Shown: positions 9,606 through 22,196 of the stretch, piece by piece
How the letters are laid out: each line of letters starts with the position of its first letter
Numbering within the stretch: the first letter of the stretch is position 1
NCBI RefSeq assembly: GCF_000829315.1
Contig: NZ_AP013028.1
Span: 60,001-92,000 of the forward strand
Reading direction: 5' to 3'
Source of the DNA: Wolbachia endosymbiont of Cimex lectularius
GTDB taxonomy: Bacteria; Pseudomonadota; Alphaproteobacteria; Rickettsiales; Anaplasmataceae
Length of the DNA: 32,000 nt
The notes under the pieces: generated by a model
Told to the model about the DNA's origin: nothing
Seen by the model: only the letters and a program-made list of their open reading frames with translations
Databases searched by the model: none
Program-made: the position numbers and the translations under genes

Positions 9606-11729
9606 ATGGAGGGGTTTATGCCTATTAATTATTATAAAGTGTTAGGGGTGGAAAGAAATGCTACTGAAGAGGAAATAAAAAAAGCATATAAGAAATTAGC
9701 ACTGAAGTATCATCCAGATAAAAATCCTGGTAATAAAGAAGAAGCAGAGAAAAAATTTAAAGAAATCTATTCTGCATATCAGGTATTATCCGATCCAGAA
9801 AAAAGAAGTAAGTATGACATGGGAGAAGATATTGGTCAAAAAACTCGCTGGTCGGCGGAATGGCTACGTAAAGAATCAAGACGTCAAGATGAAGAATCAA
9901 GACGTCAAGATGAAGAATTAAGACGTCAAGATGAAGAATTAAGACGTCAAGATGAAGAATCAAGACGTCAAGATGAAGAATCAAGACATCAAGATGAAGA
10001 ATCAAAACGTCAAGATGAAGAATTAAGACGTCAAGATGAAGAATTAAGACGTCAAGATGAAGAATCAAGACGTCAAGATGAAGAATCAAGACATCAAGAT
10101 GAAGAATCAAAACGTCAAGATGAAGAATTAAGACGTCAAGATGAAGAATTAAGACGTCAAGATGAAGAATTAAGACGTCAAGATGAAGAATTAAGACGTC
10201 AAGATGAAGAATTAAGACGTCAAGATGAAGAATTAAGACGTCAAGATGAAGAATCAAGACGTCAAGATGAAGAATCAAGACATCAAGATGAAGAATCAAA
10301 ACGTCAAGATGAAGAATTAAGACGTCAAGATGAAGAATTAAGACGTCAAGATGAAGAATCAAGACGTCAAGATGAAGAATCAAGACGTCAAGATGAAGAA
10401 TCAAGACGTCAAGATGAAGAATCAAGACGTCAAGATGAAGAATTAAGACGTCAAGATGAAGAATCAAGACGTCAAGATGAGTTGAAAGATAGTATCATAC
10501 AAGGTGATTTTGAGAGGTGTCGTTCTTTGATAGAAGGAGGTGTAGACGTTAATGTAAAATTCCTCGATTCAACAACCCCAGTGAAACGTGCTATTGAGCA
10601 TGATCGTGAGAAAATTTTAGGTTTCTTGATTGAAGAAGGAGCAGAAATATCATTCAATGCTGCTTTAAGTGATGCTATTAAACATGGTTCTAAAAGGATT
10701 TTTGATTGCCTTTTAAATAAATATGCAGACAAAGTAGACATTAATCATCAAGATAAAGGTGGAAACACAGCTTTACACCATGCATTACAGGGGTTTATTA
10801 GGGATGAATCGAAATACAAAAATTTTGCTGAGTCACTCCTTGGCAAAGGTGCGAAACTTGATGTTAAAAATAACAAAAATGAAACTCCGTTTGATCTCTT
10901 GATAGGCTATGTTGAGAAGTATTCTTATGAAAAAGCGCAAGGATTAACCTTTGTTTTGGAGTTGCTTAGCAAGCATGAAAATAAAAATGCACTAAAAGAG
11001 CTAAAATATAAAGGTGATACTCCTGCGTTAAATAAACTGCTGGAACTTGCTGTTAAATATAATTCTCAGGGGGCTTTTAAATCTCTTTTAGATCAATATG
11101 ATATAGACATCAATTATCAAGATAAAAACAGAGATACAGCTTTACATCATGCATTAAAAGGGTTCATTGATGCTGAGTATGATTCTTCAAAACGAAATAG
11201 ATACAAAAGTTTTGCTGAATCACTTCTGAGTAAAGGTGCAAAACTTGATATTAAAAATAACAAAAATGAAACTCCATTTGATCTCTTGATAGACTATGTT
11301 AAGAAGTATTCTTCTGAAAAAGCGCAAAGACTGACTACTGTTTTAGAGTTACTCGACAAATGTAAAAATAAGGATGCACTAAAAGAACTAAGATGTAAGG
11401 ATGGCACTCCTGCATTAGATAAACTAAAGAAACTTGAGTCTGATTTTGACCGGTCGTACTCCACATTCAAAAATAGTAAAGTAGGGAACGTTCAAAAAAA
11501 TCTGCTACCAGAAAGCACATTTAATAATTCATTGTGGTACGTGATTGGTGCCATAGCTGGTGCAGCAATTGGAGCAGCCCTAGCATATAGCATTACTGAT
11601 GCTTTTTCAGTAATTATAGCAGCTGTTGTGATTGGTTCATTGCTAGGTATGGCAATAACTTATGGTGTTAGCAAATGTTTAGAGCAACCTAAAATAGAAC
11701 ATATAACAAAGGAACCATATGTATCTTAG
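9606..11729 (+). CDS. J-domain (DnaJ-like) protein with a 29 x 7-aa charged repeat, ankyrin repeats and a C-terminal 2-TM anchor
   Basis: J-domain [57 protein letters not shown], with HPD at 9711-9719. It is followed by 29 units of E(S/L)(R/K)(R/H)QDE. ANK-like units include [11 protein letters not shown] and [20 protein letters not shown], organised as a duplicated ~120-aa module. The C-terminus is [18 protein letters not shown]...[19 protein letters not shown]. The track starts at TTG 9561; ATG 9606 or 9618 is more plausible. Confidence 0.8.
9873..10481 (+). repeat. In-frame tandem repeat, 29 units x 21 bp (gaa t[c/t]a a[g/a]a c[g/a]t caa gat gaa)
   Basis: 609 bp equals exactly 29 x 21. 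Only three nucleotide positions vary, giving four unit types (SRR, SRH, SKR, LRR). The 5-unit (105-bp) block SRR-SRH-SKR-LRR-LRR recurs three times (units 5-9, 10-14, 19-23). Confidence 0.95.
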
Positions 11730-11753
11730 GGTGTGATAAATATTGAAGCAAAA

Positions 11754-12263
11754 ATGGTGCCATATAAGTAGCTGACACTGGAACCTAGGATACTGCTTTA
11801 GTAATAAATATTTAAGAAATTTACTAAATAGAGAAAAAAGCAAAAGGAGTCCCGTGGTGGCTAGTTATTTACTTTTGTGTCGAAATATCGGCGTTTTTTT
11901 TATTCTAAACGCTTGATGAATGCGACTTAGCTGCAAACGTTTAAAAAATTTACTAAACAGAAAAAACAGCAAAAGAAACCCCGGTAGCTAGTTATTTACT
12001 ATCTATCCTATAATATTGGCGTTTTTTTATGTTTTAAACGACTTATAAGCGCGTTTGAGCTTGAAAACCAGAAGTTTTAAAAAGACGTGAGGTGCACATA
12101 GTGCAAAAAATTAAACATGGTACACCAGATATACTAAGTTTTTTTGTCGTTTAATCTGCACAGACTGAAGATAAGTAATAGCTTCAATCTCATTATAAGG
12201 GGGTTGGTGAGATTTGTCAAGCAAATTTTGCTTTAATTCGTTTCTATGCTACTTGGATGACAC
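11754..12263 (-). repeat. ~0.5-kb composite repeat: gene-less (MITE-like) derivative of the Rpn cassette, inverted relative to 15710-16185
   Basis: Both ends carry the terminal palindromic motif (11754-11790 ..catataagtagctgacactgg; 12248-12263 gctacttggatgacac). Exact inverted matches to the 15.7-kb copy include 12190-12209 = rc of 15763-15782 (caccaacccccttataatga) and 12034-12055 = rc of 15927-15948 (aacgcgcttataagtcgtttaa). It contains 50-bp modules at 11808-11862 and 11941-11990. Confidence 0.8.
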
Positions 12264-12332
12264 AGTAGGTTATTTAGAGAATTTTACAAAAATCCATTTT
12301 TAACTTACACTATAGTTTTAAACCTACAACTT

Positions 12333-15700: not shown

Positions 15701-15709
15701 TTCTATTTT

Positions 15710-16185
15710 CAATGTCATCCAAGTAGCATAGAAACAGAATGAAAAAACTACTTGATAACTTTCACCAACCCCCTTATAATGATACTGAAGCTATTTGTTT
15801 AACTTCCCAATCTGTGCAGGTTAAAATGACAAGAAAACTTGTATTTGGCGTACTATTGTTTAATTTTTCGCACTATGTGCACTGCATGTCTTTTTAAAAC
15901 TTCGGGTTTCTACCCATACAAGCTGAAACGCGCTTATAAGTCGTTTAAGACATCACCCAACGCCGGATTTTAAAATAGAGATGGAATAACTAGCTACCTC
16001 GGGGTTTTGTTGTCCTTTTTTTCTGCCTGGTAAATTTCTTAAATATTATAGCTTAGACTAGTTGCGTTTAAAAGCAGCTAAATTGCAGCGTTTAAGGCAT
16101 AAAAACGCCAATACTAAAAATAAATACCGACCGGGGCTTCTTTTGCTTTTTTCTCTATTTAGTAAATTTTTTAATATAGTTGCAA
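15710..16185 (+). repeat. Composite repeat forming the upstream ~0.5 kb of Rpn cassette 2 (inverted partner of 11754-12263)
   Basis: Begins with caatgtcatccaagtagc (15710-15727), which is the reverse complement of 3173-3190. It contains 50-bp modules at 15991-16046 and 16126-16177. See the exact inverted 20-22-mers listed for 11754-12263. Confidence 0.8.
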
Positions 16186-16234
16186 TTCAAGATGAGGCTT
16201 GGGTTCGTAGGCCAATACATCCGAAACAAAAAGA

Positions 16235-16263
16235 TTGAATATTTCTACAGAATTGTGTATAAT
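16235..16263 (+). promoter_or_regulatory. Candidate promoter of Rpn copy 2 (TTGAAT-17 nt-TATAAT)
   Basis: TTGAAT at 16235-16240 and TATAAT at 16258-16263, embedded in the conserved leader caagatgaggcttgggttcgtaggccaatacatcc.aaacaaaaagattgaatatttctacagaattgtgtataat. Confidence 0.5.
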
Positions 16264-16289
16264 TATTAATATTTTTAAGCACTATAGTT

Positions 16290-17228
16290 GTGGCTTTCTC
16301 AAAATTTCTCGACCCTAAAAACGATGTAGCGTTTCGTCGTATCTTTGGTACTGAAAAAAATAAAGATATTCTTATTCATTTCTTAAATGATATTTTAGGC
16401 TTTACTGGCAAGGATGAAATAAAAGAAATAGAATTCCTCAGCACTATTCAAGATGCTGAAATTGCCTCCAAAAAGCAAAGCATTGTTGATGTTCTCTGTA
16501 GAGATGAAAATGGGGTGCAAGTGATAGTCGAAATACAGGTTGCTAAAACTAAAGGCTTTGAAAAACGTGCTCAATATTATGCTGCTGAAGCGTATTCAAG
16601 ACAGGCTAACAAAGGTGATCAATATGAAGACCTCAAAGAAATTATCTTTATCGCCATTGCCGATTGTATCTTATTTCCCGACAAGTCCGAATATAAATCA
16701 AAGCACACTATTCGGGATGAGGATACTAATGAGCATGACTTAAAAGATTTTTATTTTACATTTATTGAACTACCAAAATTTCCGAAAACGAAGGAAGATC
16801 AATTGGAGAGTATAGTAGAAAAATGGGTCTACTTTTTCAAGTATGCAGATGAAACCAGTGAAAAGGAATTGGAAAAAATAATAGGAAGTGACGTAATAAT
16901 CAAAAAAGCATATGAGGAGCTGAATAGATTCAACTGGTCAGAAAAGGAGTTCATAGCATATGAACAAGAAATAAAGCGTATTCGTGATGAGAAAGCTGTT
17001 CTAGCTCAAAAACTTGATGATGCTACTGAAAAAGGCAGAAAAGAGGGCATCCAAATCGGCAGGGAAGAAGGCATCCAAATCGGCGAAGAAAGAGGAGAAA
17101 AACACGCTAAAATAGTTGTAGCTAAAAACTCACTTAAGGCCGGTGTCTCTATAGATGTTATAGCTCAAATTACCGGACTTTCCCTCGATGAAATCAAAAA
17201 GCTAAGGAATTATATTTCATCTAGTTAA
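16290..17228 (+). CDS. Rpn-family PD-(D/E)XK nuclease / putative transposase, copy 2 (GTG start)
   Basis: (M)AFSKFLDPKNDVAFRRIFGTEKNKDILIHFLNDILG..SIVDVLCR..VIVEIQ..FEKRAQYYAAEAY. The C-terminal region carries a 24-bp tandem duplication (17043-17066 and 17067-17090, EGIQIGRE/EGIQIGEE). Confidence 0.8.
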   Translation: MAFSKFLDPKNDVAFRRIFGTEKNKDILIHFLNDILGFTGKDEIKEIEFLSTIQDAEIASKKQSIVDVLCRDENGVQVIVEIQVAKTKGFEKRAQYYAAEAYSRQANKGDQYEDLKEIIFIAIADCILFPDKSEYKSKHTIRDEDTNEHDLKDFYFTFIELPKFPKTKEDQLESIVEKWVYFFKYADETSEKELEKIIGSDVIIKKAYEELNRFNWSEKEFIAYEQEIKRIRDEKAVLAQKLDDATEKGRKEGIQIGREEGIQIGEERGEKHAKIVVAKNSLKAGVSIDVIAQITGLSLDEIKKLRNYISSS

Positions 17229-17268: not shown

Positions 17269-17517
17269 ATCCATCCACAGCTGTACGAACATTGTGATTT
17301 GAGCCTACCACTGGGGTGTCATGCCAGTGCTTGACACTGGCATCCAGGAATTTTACTAAGTTGGTGAGTATAAAAGTAGCTGTTTTATGTTAAAATACGA
17401 CGTTTTTGATAATTATGGAAAAGCTGGATCCCAGTGTCACGCACTGGGATGATACCGTCTGTTACGTAAATTACCTGCTAATTGCAATGTTCATACAGCT
17501 GTGCCATCCATCCAGGA
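17269..17517. repeat. Nested inverted-repeat structure containing a ~140-bp mini-element with two perfect hairpins
   Basis: Outer inverted repeat: 17279-17296 acagctgtacgaacattg against 17486-17503 caatgttcatacagctgt (17 of 18). Inside are hairpins atgccagtg-cttga-cactggcat (17321-17343) and atcccagtg-tcacg-cactgggat (17428-17450), each with a 9-bp perfect stem. They belong to the same family as the cassette termini. Confidence 0.75.
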
Positions 17518-17534: not shown

Positions 17535-17646
17535 TCAAGTGTATACAGTTTCTACACCACTGGATATTTGTTGTGTTAATATTGAAGATAAGTGAACAGG
17601 AATGTCATTGGCTACTTTGTCCACGCATTCAACTTCAAACTGCTTA
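17535..17646 (-). pseudogene. Orphaned 3' end (35 codons + stop) of the large gene disrupted by the IS at 17647-18507
   Basis: Removing the IS and one TTA copy joins ..ELSLLSK (right flank) in frame to QFEVECVDKVANDIPVHLSSILTQQISSGVETVYT*, with the stop at 17535-17537. Confidence 0.7.
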
Positions 17647-18507
17647 GAACCTGTTTAAAATCTTCGTAACAGGAGAGAAATGAAGGAGAGGACTATCATC
17701 TGTAAGCTAGTGTTGAGCTTCCGCTCGCAATTTTTCCACAATCGCCTGCACTTTTCTAACCAGGCAAAAGAGCGTTCAACAACCCATCTTTTTGGCAATA
17801 CGACGAAAGTGTGTAACTCACTTCGCTTTATTACTTCAACAGTCGCACCAATGATAGCTTTTATTTGTGTTGCAAAATTTTCTCCTGTGTAGCCAGCATC
17901 AACCAGTATGTTTTTAACTTCAGAGAGGTTTACTTTAGCATTTTCGACCATTTTCACAGCACTGCTACGGTCAGTTGCTTCTGCCGTTGTTACATAAATT
18001 GCATGTGGCAAACCTTGTGTATCAACTGCAATATGGCGCTTTATCCCTGAAATCTTTTTACCTGCATCATAGCCTTTTTTTTTCAGCAGTATCTGCGTTT
18101 TTAACGCTTTGAGAATCAATTATACAAAAGCTAGTTTTCTCTTTCCGACCATTGCTGATACGGACCTCTCCAACTAATTTTTTTTAAGACTAATTCCAAC
18201 AAGCTTGGCTCTTCTCCATTCTTTTTACTCCACACTCGAAAATAGTAATATACGCTTTCCCATCTTGGAAAACCCTTTGGTAACATCCTCCACTGACAAC
18301 CACTTTTTAAGACGTACAACACCCCACAAAATACGTCATACAAATCAAGTTTTCTTGGTTTTGTTTTCTGCTTGCTACTCTCCAAAATTGGCCTGATTTT
18401 TTCAAACTGCTCTTGACTTATATTACTTGGATAACTTTTCTGCATAGACACCTCATTATTAATCTATGCTTACTTTACCTCACATTTCCAAGATTTTAAA
18501 CAGGTTC
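17647..18507 (-). mobile_element. IS5-family insertion sequence (IS1031 / ISWpi1-like), 861 bp, with 3-bp TTA target duplication
   Basis: 18-bp perfect terminal inverted repeats: gaacctgtttaaaatctt at 17647-17664 and its reverse complement at 18490-18507. Flanking direct repeats are TTA at 17644-17646 and 18508-18510. It encodes an IS5-type DDE transposase. Confidence 0.9.
17655..18451 (-). pseudogene. IS5-family DDE transposase, reading frame split into three segments at two homopolymer A tracts
   Basis: orfA (18131-18451) is MSMQKSYPSNISQEQFEKIRPILE...LVLKK. A middle segment in another frame reads LVGEVRISNGRKEKTSFCIIDSQSVKNADTAEKK. orfB (17655-18119) is GYDAGKKISGIKRHIAVDTQGLP..VDAGYTG..VVERSFAWLEKCRRLWKNCERK (D, D, E and the Y-R-E-K signature). 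The frame changes coincide with A8 (18178-18185) and A9 (18075-18083). Confidence 0.75.
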
Positions 18508-20591
18508 TTACTTAATAAGCTTAGTTCATTAACGGCAGAACGTGAATCATTTTGAATATTTGCACAAAATATAAGTCTTCTAGACGCTTCAGGATAATTG
18601 TAGTCCATTAAAAGCATAGCTGAAACTACCAAAAAAGAAATCACTTGAGCAATAAGAGAGTTTGTGAGAGCAAGTGGCAATAAAGATAAAGATATAACGA
18701 TAACGTACCTTGCCATATAATTGAATTTTGCAAAAAATAGCAACTTGGAATGTGAGTTATGTAACTTGCCATAAGAGTTAGTAAACGTTTCTTTATTATA
18801 CACAGTTCTAATATTAAATAATGGATGATCAGTTTTTAGCTTTGGCTCACCGAAACCAAATAAAGTATTAATGTTATGATAATAGGCTTGGCAATTAATA
18901 ATTTCCTGATTGATTTCACATATCCATTTATAAACTTGCTCTAGATCTTCCAATGAGCTATTTTTTATGTTTTTTAGAGAATTACTGAACTCACTTAAGT
19001 TCTTTTTAAAATCAATAATTTTCTTTAACTTGTTACCATTATTGTTATCCTGAGAATATATTATATTTAATATTATTGATAAACATTTTTTTCCTTCTTT
19101 TGTTGATAACAATGAATAGATAGATTTATCCAGTGCTTCAATGTAATTTTCATTTTCAAGAAGACCTACTGCTGTTTCTAGAAGTTTAACTAACCGTTCT
19201 TTTTCACCTGCGTTCTGTAATCCATTTGTTAGCAATTCAAGTGGTTCTTTAAGGGTATATTTTTTCTGTAATTTCTCTACCTTCTCCAATAGCAGCTCAT
19301 CGTGTTTGCTAATGATGCTTGAACACTTTAAAAAACTTTCAAGGCTACAATGCCTGATCACATAAGCATATGCTAACACCTTTTCGTCATCCTTTTCATT
19401 CAAAGTACATGATTTGGCTAAAAAGATTACATAATCAAATGCAAAATTTACATAATAAGCAGCTTTGGTAATTGTAGTTAAAACAAAGAAGAGTACTCTT
19501 TGTAAGAAAAGCGGTTTACCATCGTTTATTATTCTATTTCTATATGAACGAAGATATTCTTCTGTACTTTTGGCAATCTTACGTAAGTCTTTTTCTGTCT
19601 TTTCTACGTCAAAATCATTCATATCATGCACTTTTTCATACGCTTCTTTTATCAAACCATATGAAAAATCTTGCAGATCTTTATCATTAATATTTCCTAA
19701 CGCATCCATATTTTCACTGATGTAGATTTCCATTTTTGCTCCAAGCTCAACTCCCATTCTATTCTTTACCAGCTTACTATATCTGTCAACAGCTGGAAAT
19801 AGAACCTTCTGGCAAAAATATCTTGGTGGGCTTTTTAACTTCGCTAAAACCTTATCCACAAATAGTTCAACTTTTTCACCTGCAACTGCAAAAAACCACG
19901 ACTGTCTACTAATATTGCGTTCCCTATTTCTCCAAAGATTCTGCAAAGCTTCAGCTGGATCGTTAAATTGACTAGCTGAATCCGTAAATATTGATGCAAC
20001 GTGATTATACTCGCTGTCAAAACCACGACCTTTCGATCCATCTACGACTGTTGTCAATGCACATTTAGCTAATGCATTAACGTTTCCTTGCGAATAATCA
20101 CAATATTCAACACTGTCTTTGCCTTTGAATTCATGTATTTTAAAGGGTTCGTCCTTTTCAATACCACTTCTTTTAAGCCCCACAAAAATACACATATTAT
20201 CTTCACAGAAACTGTTGAGACTGTGCAGTGCACCTTCTTTTCTTTCTATAAGGTCATGCATTTCTTTACTTAAATGCCAGTTATCCACTATTAGCTTGCA
20301 TTGTTCATTGTCACATTTACCCAATGCTTCAATCACTGTCTTTATTTGTGGCAGAAGTTTATCTTGAGCAAATTCCTCATCAAAGCCTTTTTTCTTTAGA
20401 AAATCTACAACTTTGCCATCATCTACAACACTAATCTTACCTTTAACGCTTCTAGTCAACCTGCTTAAATCTTCTCTTCTTTGTTTATCTAAAGCGATGT
20501 TATCACACTCCATTAAAAATGAGAGCGTAAGGTCAATCATTAAATGCATTACTCTATATTTTAAGTACTTGTGAGTATCACTAAAGTTCAC
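18480..20591 (-). CDS. Large uncharacterised membrane-associated protein (distal part of a split ~1188-codon gene; last 8 codons are IS-derived)
   Basis: 703-aa ORF with no motif I recognise. Hydrophobic segments include LFFVLTTITKAAYYVNFAFDYVIFLA and YVIVISLSLLPLALTNSLIAQVISFLVVSAMLL. The C-terminal NLFKILEM* is encoded by the IS terminal repeat. Confidence 0.6.
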   Translation of the reverse strand: MNFSDTHKYLKYRVMHLMIDLTLSFLMECDNIALDKQRREDLSRLTRSVKGKISVVDDGKVVDFLKKKGFDEEFAQDKLLPQIKTVIEALGKCDNEQCKLIVDNWHLSKEMHDLIERKEGALHSLNSFCEDNMCIFVGLKRSGIEKDEPFKIHEFKGKDSVEYCDYSQGNVNALAKCALTTVVDGSKGRGFDSEYNHVASIFTDSASQFNDPAEALQNLWRNRERNISRQSWFFAVAGEKVELFVDKVLAKLKSPPRYFCQKVLFPAVDRYSKLVKNRMGVELGAKMEIYISENMDALGNINDKDLQDFSYGLIKEAYEKVHDMNDFDVEKTEKDLRKIAKSTEEYLRSYRNRIINDGKPLFLQRVLFFVLTTITKAAYYVNFAFDYVIFLAKSCTLNEKDDEKVLAYAYVIRHCSLESFLKCSSIISKHDELLLEKVEKLQKKYTLKEPLELLTNGLQNAGEKERLVKLLETAVGLLENENYIEALDKSIYSLLSTKEGKKCLSIILNIIYSQDNNNGNKLKKIIDFKKNLSEFSNSLKNIKNSSLEDLEQVYKWICEINQEIINCQAYYHNINTLFGFGEPKLKTDHPLFNIRTVYNKETFTNSYGKLHNSHSKLLFFAKFNYMARYVIVISLSLLPLALTNSLIAQVISFLVVSAMLLMDYNYPEASRRLIFCANIQNDSRSAVNELSLLSKNLFKILEM

Positions 20592-20599
20592 TTTCTCAC

Positions 20600-21964
20600 T
20601 TAACTCGGATATTGTTCCTCTGTTAGATTGGAATATTGCTTTTTAACACAGTTTATAAAATTTGACTGACGCAATTTTAGTCTGTAATCCTTGTACAGCA
20701 TTTTATCAGGCTTACACAAATTATAAATACTATAGCGCGTGTATGTTTTCCCATTTTCATATACTTCATCATCTTTGCCTTGAAATATAGAAATAAGATT
20801 CATTATACTATCTAAATCATATGTCAAAATCAGAGCATTTTCTCCAATTGGACTTTGTATGTTCCACCTTACAGATGTTAATAAATCATCAGTATCAACA
20901 AGTTTGTTGTGGTAAAAGGTTTCTTCGCATTTTTCAATGTATTCATGGGCTGGGCTAGATTTACATTTACTAGATAAGACTTCAAATAAATTAGCGAAAG
21001 CCCTTAAGAACAGTTGCTTTAACTCTACACCAGCAATTTTGCTGAACACCCACATGACTGGCGCCGTTATCATAAAAAAGACAATAACGGAAATTATATA
21101 CTTGGAACTATTAATCAGAAAAAGGTACAGCCTAAGATTTGAAGTGAAACCAATCTGTGCAGCTATTGCAGTAACATGGATATTTATAATAGGAAACAAG
21201 GCAATTGAAGATATGACATAGAGAGCAACACCAGTTGCTAATATTCGACCAAATTTTTCTCCATTGGTTTTTTTTATGATACCAGTTGTTTTTATAGTAT
21301 CTACAATGCAGCATCTACTTGATCTTGCAGGGCTGATAATTTTCCCACATCTGCTTAAGATTCTTCTTTTTGTAGTTGCAGCGAGATAGGTTGTAGGATA
21401 CTTTCTATCAAGCTGACATATATTTTCAAAAGCCTGTTGTTGGCTAATACTATCTGCTTCATCAATACTGATCCACAGTTTAGGTTTTTCACCGCTTTGA
21501 TTTCCAAGTTTTTGACCATCTTTTTGTTGTAAGAGCAAATCATGTGTTATTATAATTGTTGTAGGTTCAGTGTTTTTCAGTAAGTCCTCAATCCCTTGAG
21601 TAGTTTCAGGTGTTTCAATTCTTAAAGAAAATGCGTCACCTATCATTTTTTTAGCTTGATTCACTAAATTATTATTTGGCACTGCAACTAGATGATGAAA
21701 CCCTGCTTGAGCCAATACGTAACTATGCAACCCAATATCGTAAGTCTTGCCAAATCCAGTTTCTGCGTCAATCATAATATTGTAGTTAGTGGTGGAAGGG
21801 CTTTTTAAGTGTTCTAATACTCCCTCAACAACAGGTTTACGACGTCCTACTGTCACAGACTCCTTTGCATTGCCAAATCTTTTAGATTCTCCTTTTAACT
21901 CGCTGTCGATTTTTTCTAGGTTTTTTATAATAACTTGCTTGTCTTGATTGCTGATAGAGCACAT
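20600..21964 (-). CDS. SF2 (DEAD-like) ATPase N-domain protein with transmembrane segments (proximal part of the split gene)
   Basis: Motif I AETGFGKT (21743-21766), Ia-like LVAVPNNNLVNQ, motif II DEAD (21452-21463) and motif III-like LAATT. These are followed by hydrophobic helices ILATGVALYVISSIALFPII..VTAIAAQIGF and YIISVIVFFMITAPVMWVF (about 21038-21250). I saw no RecA2 domain (motifs IV-VI). Confidence 0.6.
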   Translation of the reverse strand: MCSISNQDKQVIIKNLEKIDSELKGESKRFGNAKESVTVGRRKPVVEGVLEHLKSPSTTNYNIMIDAETGFGKTYDIGLHSYVLAQAGFHHLVAVPNNNLVNQAKKMIGDAFSLRIETPETTQGIEDLLKNTEPTTIIITHDLLLQQKDGQKLGNQSGEKPKLWISIDEADSISQQQAFENICQLDRKYPTTYLAATTKRRILSRCGKIISPARSSRCCIVDTIKTTGIIKKTNGEKFGRILATGVALYVISSIALFPIINIHVTAIAAQIGFTSNLRLYLFLINSSKYIISVIVFFMITAPVMWVFSKIAGVELKQLFLRAFANLFEVLSSKCKSSPAHEYIEKCEETFYHNKLVDTDDLLTSVRWNIQSPIGENALILTYDLDSIMNLISIFQGKDDEVYENGKTYTRYSIYNLCKPDKMLYKDYRLKLRQSNFINCVKKQYSNLTEEQYPS

Positions 21965-22044: not shown

Positions 22045-22196
22045 CTATTGAATGATGGAGAGACATACTCCATTATTTTGGCACGAAGTAACAAATTCAA
22101 TAAATTGTATGGCCCCTGTGTAATGGGAATTGGTATTAATAGTTGCAGTTTATGTCTCTCAGTGATAAAATGATGATCTGTGTATAATTTAATATT

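Follow-up and report, generated by a model that had tools for sequence, protein, structure and literature searches.

Rpn nuclease genes of a Wolbachia endosymbiont probably lie nested in an independent mosaic intergenic repeat

The window analysed here is a stretch of 32,000 nucleotides from the Wolbachia endosymbiont of Cimex lectularius (contig NZ_AP013028.1, positions 60,001 to 92,000 of the forward strand), and all window positions count from its first letter. It contains three genes of the Rpn nuclease family, Rpn1 (2176-3051, +), Rpn2 (16290-17228, +) and Rpn3 (29335-30159, -), which a first-pass annotation had placed in repeated cassettes with a common leader, flanking direct repeats and inverted, hairpin-forming termini. 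Probably, the Rpn genes lie within a mosaic intergenic repeat that is independent of them, and recombination at the modules of this repeat accounts for their gain, loss and exchange. The block formed by a conserved leader element (B), a promoter segment (Pr) and the rpn gene would sit inside copies of a separate, high-copy, modular repeat. The direct repeats would be the T modules of this unit and the inverted termini its ends, neither having been brought by Rpn. Copies would be gained, lost or exchanged between dispersed homologies, presumably through homologous recombination or gene conversion of T with T, and the repeats may also seed chromosomal rearrangements. There is no sign of transposition by Rpn in the evidence gathered.

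Structure of the repeat unit and the guaB site

The nearest guaB homologs, at 97-99% identity, belong to Wolbachia of supergroup-F-type hosts (Mansonella perstans and lice among them) and to termite-gut metagenome-assembled genomes; the window itself is supergroup-F-like. Assemblies collinear with the window were found by exact-protein look-up of guaB. In L147 (from wMpe) and L148, with guaB 97-98% identical, the same junction follows the guaB stop codon (ccagagtagatcc...caatgtcatccaagtagc) and leads into the modules H-T-M-P with a single T. No Rpn gene is present, and ygfZ-like, groES and groEL genes lie beyond the unit. The 5′ half and left flank of the single T in L148 match the T module upstream of Rpn1, and the 3′ half and right flank match the T module downstream of it. 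The window and L148/L147 differ here by exactly [B-Pr-Rpn1-tail-T], bounded by direct T repeats, while the outer ends of the unit are unchanged. These strains supply the empty site that the first-pass annotation had suggested seeking in relatives, with no duplication other than T and no target-site duplication seen. As the flanking M2 module is ~98-99% identical between the strains, the insertion or deletion of Rpn is taken to be recent. Synteny differs beyond the P end of the unit, with clpB in the window and ygfZ in L147 and L148; the guaB unit also marks a rearrangement point.

Profiles of seven modules (EL, P, M, T, B, Pr and H) were built from the window copies and then mapped. The unit extends over ~0.3-0.5 kb and consists of a left module (EL, X or G), P, M and T, sometimes a spacer with a second T, and then H. 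Cassette 1 has the order P-M2-T-[B-Pr-Rpn1]-T-H. Its P module (1747-1822, +; profile match) contains a promoter-like TTGACA-17-TATCAT and repeats with 30401-30326. The M2 body variant (1823-2016, +) is the one shared with the Rpn-less unit downstream of guaB in L148. T_up (2017-2066, +), a direct repeat of 3090-3139, precedes B (2067-2110, +; 35-mer at 2073-2107) and Pr (2111-2175, +; TTGAAT at 2120-2125 and TATAAT at 2143-2148, read from the sequence). The gene is followed by T_down (3090-3139, +; repeat and profile match) and the H end (3140-3191, +), an imperfect hairpin resembling repetitive extragenic palindromic (REP) elements, which holds an 18-mer at 3173-3190 and lies directly against the stop codon of guaB.

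Cassette 2 is arranged as EL-P-M-T-spacer-T-[B-Pr-Rpn2], with no T or H module 3′ of the gene. The unit upstream of Rpn2 (15705-16181, +) comprises EL 15705-15736 (18-mer 15710-15727), P 15736-15799, M 15802-15997, T 16000-16047, a spacer and T 16132-16180. B and Pr occupy 16182-16289 (+; B 16182-16225 with the 35-mer at 16188-16222, Pr 16226-16288). Cassette 3, P-T-[B-Pr-Rpn3]-T-H, lies on the minus strand. Its upstream part (30160-30401) has P 30396-30337, T 30316-30268, B 30266-30223 and Pr 30221-30161, the M body being missing, and its downstream part (29076-29176) has T 29174-29129 and H 29127-29076. The ~50-bp module previously seen to bracket the genes of cassettes 1 and 3 is T (2017-2065 and 3090-3138 around Rpn1; 30316-30268 and 29174-29129 around Rpn3). 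Eight T copies are present in the window, and T modules also occur as ~130-bp tandem pairs.

A solo 510-bp unit without Rpn, EL-P-M-T-spacer-T-H, is located at 11755-12266 (-) as an inverted copy of 15705-16181. The P promoters of these units score 12/12 (12220-12192) and 11/12 (15752-15780); they are near-consensus and the two best sites in the region. The two inverted units flank the block of secD, SDF-family symporter and phosphoribosyltransferase genes, their P ends facing inward and predicted to fire outward, and the arrangement is kept in metagenome contig L107 (8469-8991, 13056-13340) at 91-92.5% identity. A 23-codon open reading frame (ORF) inside M (15826-15897) was set aside as it is not conserved, its ATG being lost in the second window copy. 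The possibility that the unit is a structured small RNA gene was likewise rejected; at gathering thresholds Rfam gives 0 matches in the window, and RNAalifold on 40 units yields -3.5 kcal/mol with negligible covariation.

The ends of the unit are variable. Exact copies of the 18-mer CAATGTCATCCAAGTAGC lie at 15710-15727 (+) and 3173-3190 (-), so that the left end of cassette 2 is indeed the exact reverse complement of the right end of cassette 1, as annotated at first. With a 2-mismatch copy at 12248-12265, there are 3 matches against 0.06 expected. The same motif had also been reported at 29078-29094 and at both ends of 11754-12263. This holds for the copy at 12248-12265, but the copy at 29078-29094 and the one on the left of 11754-12263 have more than 3 mismatches to the 18-mer and are recognised only by the H-module profile. 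The imperfect hairpin attributed to the motif does fold, but weakly (-12.7 kcal/mol, z = -1.75); 14 of 200 shuffled sequences do equally well. At least four unrelated left-module types precede P, and on the right ...TGGGATGACA half-sites are repeated one to four times. Some units have EL and H as inverted copies of each other, but in the majority the left module is of another kind. Target-site duplications were not noticed at the units. The iterated ...CTGGGATGACA half-sites of the right end are related to two perfect hairpins with a 9-bp stem and 5-nt loop. One, at 17321-17343 (-18 kcal/mol), belongs to a pan-Wolbachia REP-like family and is matched by the wMel primer IGR-60F with 1 mismatch; the second is at 17428-17450 (-16.5 kcal/mol, z = -2.2).

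The unit occurs far more often than Rpn. A metagenome sample of 63 contigs (388 kb), chosen by an M-module pattern, contains 77 P, 90 M and 71 T matches (67-90 unit copies) and one Rpn gene. Nineteen units have 1.5 kb or more of contig on the T side, and one of them has Rpn there. Many contigs start or end inside M, as expected of a high-copy repeat. The 42 complete units measure 286-319 bp from P to the first T, and have a mean column identity of 74%. Units are present in several supergroups. Besides the solo unit of the window, an Rpn-less unit lies between clpB and a Mg-chelatase gene in L001. Primers for the wMel intergenic regions WD1276/htpG, hemC/sucB and WD0072/73 match M and the hairpins with 1-3 mismatches, and none of the flanking genes is Rpn. 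The IGR-1035 primer, for a wMel intergenic region not placed here between named genes, matches T with 1 mismatch. From these primer matches and the Rpn-poor units, the repeat family is concluded to be pan-Wolbachia and unlinked to Rpn. Since the modules are found dozens of times without Rpn, and an Rpn-less unit stands at guaB, the shared ends are not the ends of an Rpn transposon. Termini and gene occur independently, and the earlier proposal that Rpn forms an element with hairpin termini of its own is not supported, the ends, P and T belonging to the repeat.

Primers of Woolfit et al. 2015 for candidate small-RNA regions of wMel, including the ncrwmel01 region, match 17321-17343, 17428-17450, 12083-12104, 15870-15891 and 3082-3101 with 1-2 mismatches. 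Some wMel small-RNA candidates therefore belong to multi-copy repeats. A relation to ncrwmel02 was dropped, two primer sequences (one being a 24-nt amplicon end) having no window match at up to 4 mismatches. The M-module pattern has no match in viral contigs, and the literature searched holds nothing specific on a named Wolbachia miniature inverted-repeat transposable element (MITE) matching the unit. In three unrelated contigs, units start 10-30 bp 3′ of tRNA genes (L099 ~1330, L136 ~190, L078 ~5630).

Further signs of recombination are found at other sites. Rpn3 is a mosaic, its 5′ and 3′ flanks resembling Rpn1 (87-93%) and its body Rpn2. Loci L005 and L120 share a downstream flank at 94.5% identity, yet their Rpn genes, R2-like and R1-like respectively, agree at only 80%. 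Upstream of virB9 there are three arrangements, in the window, in wTis (L047) and in contig L137. A 24-bp sequence, X (22116-22138), marks the rearrangement junction relative to wTis and has a second copy at 30445-30467; it is present at both window junctions of this rearrangement. Synteny breaks fall at unit edges. Strains agree in having the units at secD and guaB, and differ upstream of virB9 and near o170, by rearrangement or insertion. At the ccdA site, the slot taken by Rpn3 in the window is filled in L134 by an ORF-less group II intron (11244-12000) between the two T modules, T1 and T2, with a GTGCG start and an Rfam RF00029 score of 50.5 bits against a cutoff of 40. Of the earlier suggestion of a mobile or recombination-active unit, the second half survives in a weaker form, on the T-bounded filled and empty site, the mosaicism, the swap of paralogs and the synteny breaks; a mobile transposon does not.

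The Rpn proteins and their leader

All three genes are members of the Rpn/PDDEXK_2 nuclease group, as annotated, with TIGR01784 scores of 140.4 (Rpn1, 291 aa), 172.8 (Rpn2, 312 aa) and 134.5 bits (Rpn3) against a cutoff of 52.1, over the full length of the family model. Rpn2 also matches PF12784 with 189.5 bits (cutoff 27.4). Protein identity among the three is 60-70%. D12, D67, E81-x-Q83 and R93 are invariant, giving the catalytic signature D, D, E-x-Q, R, and these residues match D11, D63, E82, Q84 and R94 of RpnA by position and spacing only (PMC5350276). It has been reported that the RpnA mutants D11A, D63A, E82A and Q84K lose all three in vivo phenotypes, that Q84A and R94A lose the recombination phenotype alone, and that the RpnA nuclease has little sequence specificity (PMC5350276). 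The window proteins have a length-variable linker and a helix-turn-helix-like C-terminal part, which is absent from Rpn3; the helix-turn-helix model of Wmk matches the C-termini of Rpn1 and Rpn2 at 30-34 bits. Rpn2 contains an 8-aa in-frame tandem duplication, GIQIGREE/GIQIGEER (17030-17096), in the linker before the C-terminal domain, recalling the variable repeat region of E. coli Rpn. DNA homology to Rpn1 runs past the stop codon of the C-terminally truncated Rpn3, which is probably decaying. No conserved in-frame internal Met (an RpnS-like start) is seen in the three window paralogs. With a synonymous divergence (dS) of 1.7 to infinity (saturated), the paralogs are old. They are old members of the known Rpn PD-(D/E)XK family, for which nuclease activity is predicted.

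The leader of the three paralogs was first described as near-identical over ~150 bp. It is shared, but near-identity applies to the stretch from -126 to -36 alone (90-100%), the identity over the full 157-158 bp being 84-89% and dropping near the start codon. Three copies of the 35-bp block are present, having 0, 0 and 1 mismatches (0 expected by chance), and TTGAAT-17-TATAAT is present as annotated, scoring 10/12 at 16235-16263. Comparison of 80 Rpn loci, one genome per species, finds Pr profile matches before ~50 Rpn copies across genomes and supergroups. Pr is predicted to be the Rpn family's own conserved sigma-70-type promoter segment of ~60 bp. In wPsyChry, wCanCry, wStri and wTPut, Rpn paralogs of one genome share 55-70 bp upstream (Pr) together with coding sequence, and homology stops inside the 3′ coding sequence. 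The T-B leader is restricted, among the loci compared, to the related genomes Gx481_bin163, Nx346_bin4, Spi319_bin9, wPaur and wTis. The B block is met only upstream of Rpn genes in the window's lineage and is missing from Rpn copies outside it. Leader identity is 88-95% throughout, whatever the paralog type or genome, which does not separate selection from gene conversion; the conservation could reflect either purifying selection on an operator-like element or gene conversion confined to T-B-Pr. In contig L137, a Pr segment (6234-6295) separates the H module of a unit from virB9. No Rpn gene is detected there, and the segment may be what is left of a copy since deleted.

Alternative explanations

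Were Rpn the transposase of an autonomous transposon with EL/H hairpin ends, the Rpn-less units would be MITE-like non-autonomous derivatives. The 18 nt that cassettes 1 and 2 share exactly, in inverted orientation, at their ends, the related motifs at both ends of the solo unit, the recurrence of P-(M)-T-B-Pr-Rpn-T-H in W1, W3, L047 and L007, and the differing loci of Rpn copies in different strains would fit such an element. The guaB comparison largely refutes it, because the filled and empty states differ inside the unit at the T repeats rather than by a whole element, leaving the unit ends in place. Units far outnumber Rpn genes and occur without them, the Rpn copies of other supergroups have no such ends, and cassette 2 has no right end. 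The several kinds of left end, the varying number of half-sites at the right end and the lack of a visible target-site duplication do not suit a transposon with fixed terminal inverted repeats. No autonomous PD-(D/E)XK transposase is known, rpn genes generally have neither terminal inverted repeats nor target-site duplications (PMC10400941), and the low sequence specificity of RpnA (PMC5350276) also argues against this explanation, which is extremely improbable. A related possibility is that the unit itself is a mobile MITE- or REP-like element, mobilised or recombined in trans by Rpn cutting its hairpins. Rpn genes would then often adjoin units because Rpn acts on them. Such an element would account for the dozens of copies in a genome, inside which contigs break, for the REP-like hairpins, and for the adjacency of unit and Rpn in several lineages with differing junctions; unclassified families of repeats with flanking inverted repeats, reaching 45 copies, are reported from wMel (PMC368164). 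The units nevertheless have no constant ends and no target-site duplication, those at secD and guaB are orthologous and stable across strains at 91-98% identity, and nothing ties Rpn activity to unit sites. Adjacency outside the window's lineage, in 2 of ~37 copies, is compatible with chance. Mobilisation in trans is accordingly rated very unlikely.

The first-pass annotation had also cautioned that homology runs past the presumed left end and that segmental duplication might be involved, and the caution was justified. Plain duplication of an ancestral [T-B-Pr-Rpn-T-H], with selection on a regulatory leader (operator, insulator or terminator) and no ongoing exchange, would explain Pr upstream of ~50 Rpn copies across supergroups and a stretch from -126 to -36 that has stayed 90-100% identical although synonymous sites are saturated. 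T after Rpn1 can form a stem with a U-run (-10 kcal/mol), as a terminator might. No other T copy folds into such a stem, z being ~0 in those contexts, T is not listed by the terminator scan, and the B block is missing outside the lineage. The recent event at guaB, the mosaic paralogs and the exchange of paralog types at one locus (L005/L120) speak for continuing recombination, so that duplication and selection without it is unlikely. A further reading, about as unlikely, treats [B-Pr-rpn] as a transposase-free gene cassette that is excised by T x T recombination and re-enters at any other T, perhaps stimulated by breaks that Rpn makes. If so, the T1-T2 interval would be a general cargo slot, which in L134 holds the ORF-less group II intron. 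An integron-type cassette was considered and rejected, with no integrase or recombinase among the scanned window ORFs and T modules that are direct repeats without a convincing hairpin.

Several points weigh against nesting in an independent repeat, which is still the preferred explanation. In some units an imperfect inverted repeat of ~15-18 bp (TGTCATCCAAGTAGC) stands at each of the two ends, and nesting gives no reason why the B block is so highly conserved. The metagenome sample is biased, as the pattern picks the M1 variant only and contigs break inside units, leaving 19 units evaluable; the frequency of Rpn in units is read from these fragmentary, pattern-selected contigs and not from whole genomes. 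Most Rpn copies of the window's lineage (at least 9 loci and the 3 here) sit in units, a strong association that may reflect common descent. A unit just upstream of Rpn also recurs in L057, L120 and L137 with differing junctions, and this adjacency could be a preference and not chance. The guaB event is either a deletion by T x T crossover or the entry of a segment at T.

Neighbouring features and relation to known systems

The gene order of the window begins with clpB (-, running off the left end), Rpn1, guaB, a TPR gene, an ankyrin gene and an MFS transporter gene. It continues with a DnaJ/ankyrin gene with 21-bp repeats, secD, an SDF-family symporter gene and a phosphoribosyltransferase gene, and ends with Rpn2, an IS5-family element, two genes of unknown function, virB9 and others, pdxJ, Rpn3 (-) and a ccdA-like gene. 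The 5′ part of clpB (1-1554, -; 520-aa frame) is the left neighbour of cassette 1, and the collinear contig L001 has a Clp_N/AAA protein there; the antisense ORF at 608-1477 (+) is spurious. Cassette 2 is adjoined by a true insertion sequence (IS) of the IS5 family (17646-18508, -) with 45-nt inverted repeats and DUF4096 and DDE_Tnp_1 domains, its transposase being split into one ORF for each domain. IS5-family copies also lie near Rpn genes in other genomes (L056, L062, L063, L074).

The MFS transporter gene (8132-9349) appears split or truncated, with ORFs of 315 and 82 aa, called as 71 and 315 aa in L003, and is probably a pseudogene. Four ~72-bp repeats, 66-95% identical, lie at 6195-6500 within overlapping small ORFs (6030-6697). 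The DnaJ-domain/ankyrin-like gene at 9561-11729 contains thirty in-frame 21-bp tandem repeats (9724-10626; core 94-98% identical); in the collinear L001 this region is divided between two ORFs (469 and 227 aa), which suggests variation in copy number or assembly. At 18480-21964 a 703-aa protein without a Pfam match adjoins a 454-aa ResIII/DEAD helicase-like protein, and the pair is missing from the equivalent site upstream of virB9 in wTis (L047) and contig L137. PADLOC has no match for Rpn1, Rpn2, o454 or o703. The PDB sequence search returned a spurious short match only, and ARAGORN finds no tRNA in the window.

The window genes resemble RpnA-E, the YhgA-like recombination-promoting nucleases of E. 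coli, in superfamily and COG-level family (TIGR01784 is named 'Rpn family'), in the conserved D...D...ExQ...R, in a variable region before a small C-terminal domain, where Rpn2 has its duplication, and in being multi-copy with single-gene loss or gain and variable ends. In contrast to the E. coli genes, which encode the RpnL toxin and the intragenic antitoxin RpnS, they belong to PF12784 (PDDEXK_2) and not PF04754, have a Wmk-like C-terminus, show no conserved RpnS-like internal start and are nested in a dispersed repeat. A study by Zhong et al. 2023 described rpn genes as toxin-antitoxin defence genes and not transposases, without terminal inverted repeats or target-site duplications and with varying ends (PMC10400941). 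The Wolbachia data fit this picture of rpn without defined ends.

Like insertion sequences, the Rpn genes are multi-copy and annotated as 'transposase'. The IS5-family copy, however, has 45-nt terminal inverted repeats and a DDE transposase, whereas the Rpn cassettes vary at their ends and lack a known transposase fold. The repeat unit is similar to the REP elements and bacterial interspersed mosaic elements (BIMEs) of enterobacteria and to the Rickettsia palindromic elements, as short imperfect palindromes are clustered in a mosaic intergenic repeat with many copies at rearrangement points. It differs in its length of 0.3-0.5 kb and near-consensus promoter, and no RAYT-type transposase was identified. 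The Correia elements of Neisseria are promoter-bearing MITEs of ~100-155 bp with clear terminal inverted repeats and a TA target duplication. The window unit is likewise dispersed between genes, bears inverted motifs at its ends and contains a promoter able to read into neighbours, but clear terminal inverted repeats and a TA duplication were not found for it. Within Wolbachia, CGTC-4 repeats have been reported (PMC3733652), as have periods of the wMel variable-number tandem repeats VNTR-105 and VNTR-141 that form 23-bp hairpins with a 9-bp stem (PMC3287509). By description, the window hairpins at 17321-17343 and 17428-17450 are of this type. Unclassified repeat families are also known in wMel, such as family 8 with 45 copies (PMC368164), and the primers that match M, T and the hairpins derive from repeat-rich transcribed intergenic regions of that genome.

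The mechanism would be an ordinary one, homologous recombination in an already repeat-rich genome. Rpn genes are still listed among 'transposable elements' in Wolbachia papers (PMC9203015), a misleading label, as the flanking ends belong to a different, far commoner intergenic repeat and the presence or absence of Rpn would be set by recombination at a short direct repeat. For annotation and strain typing, the analysis describes a promoter-bearing modular repeat that breaks assemblies, marks synteny breakpoints and overlaps wMel intergenic regions earlier proposed as small-RNA candidates.

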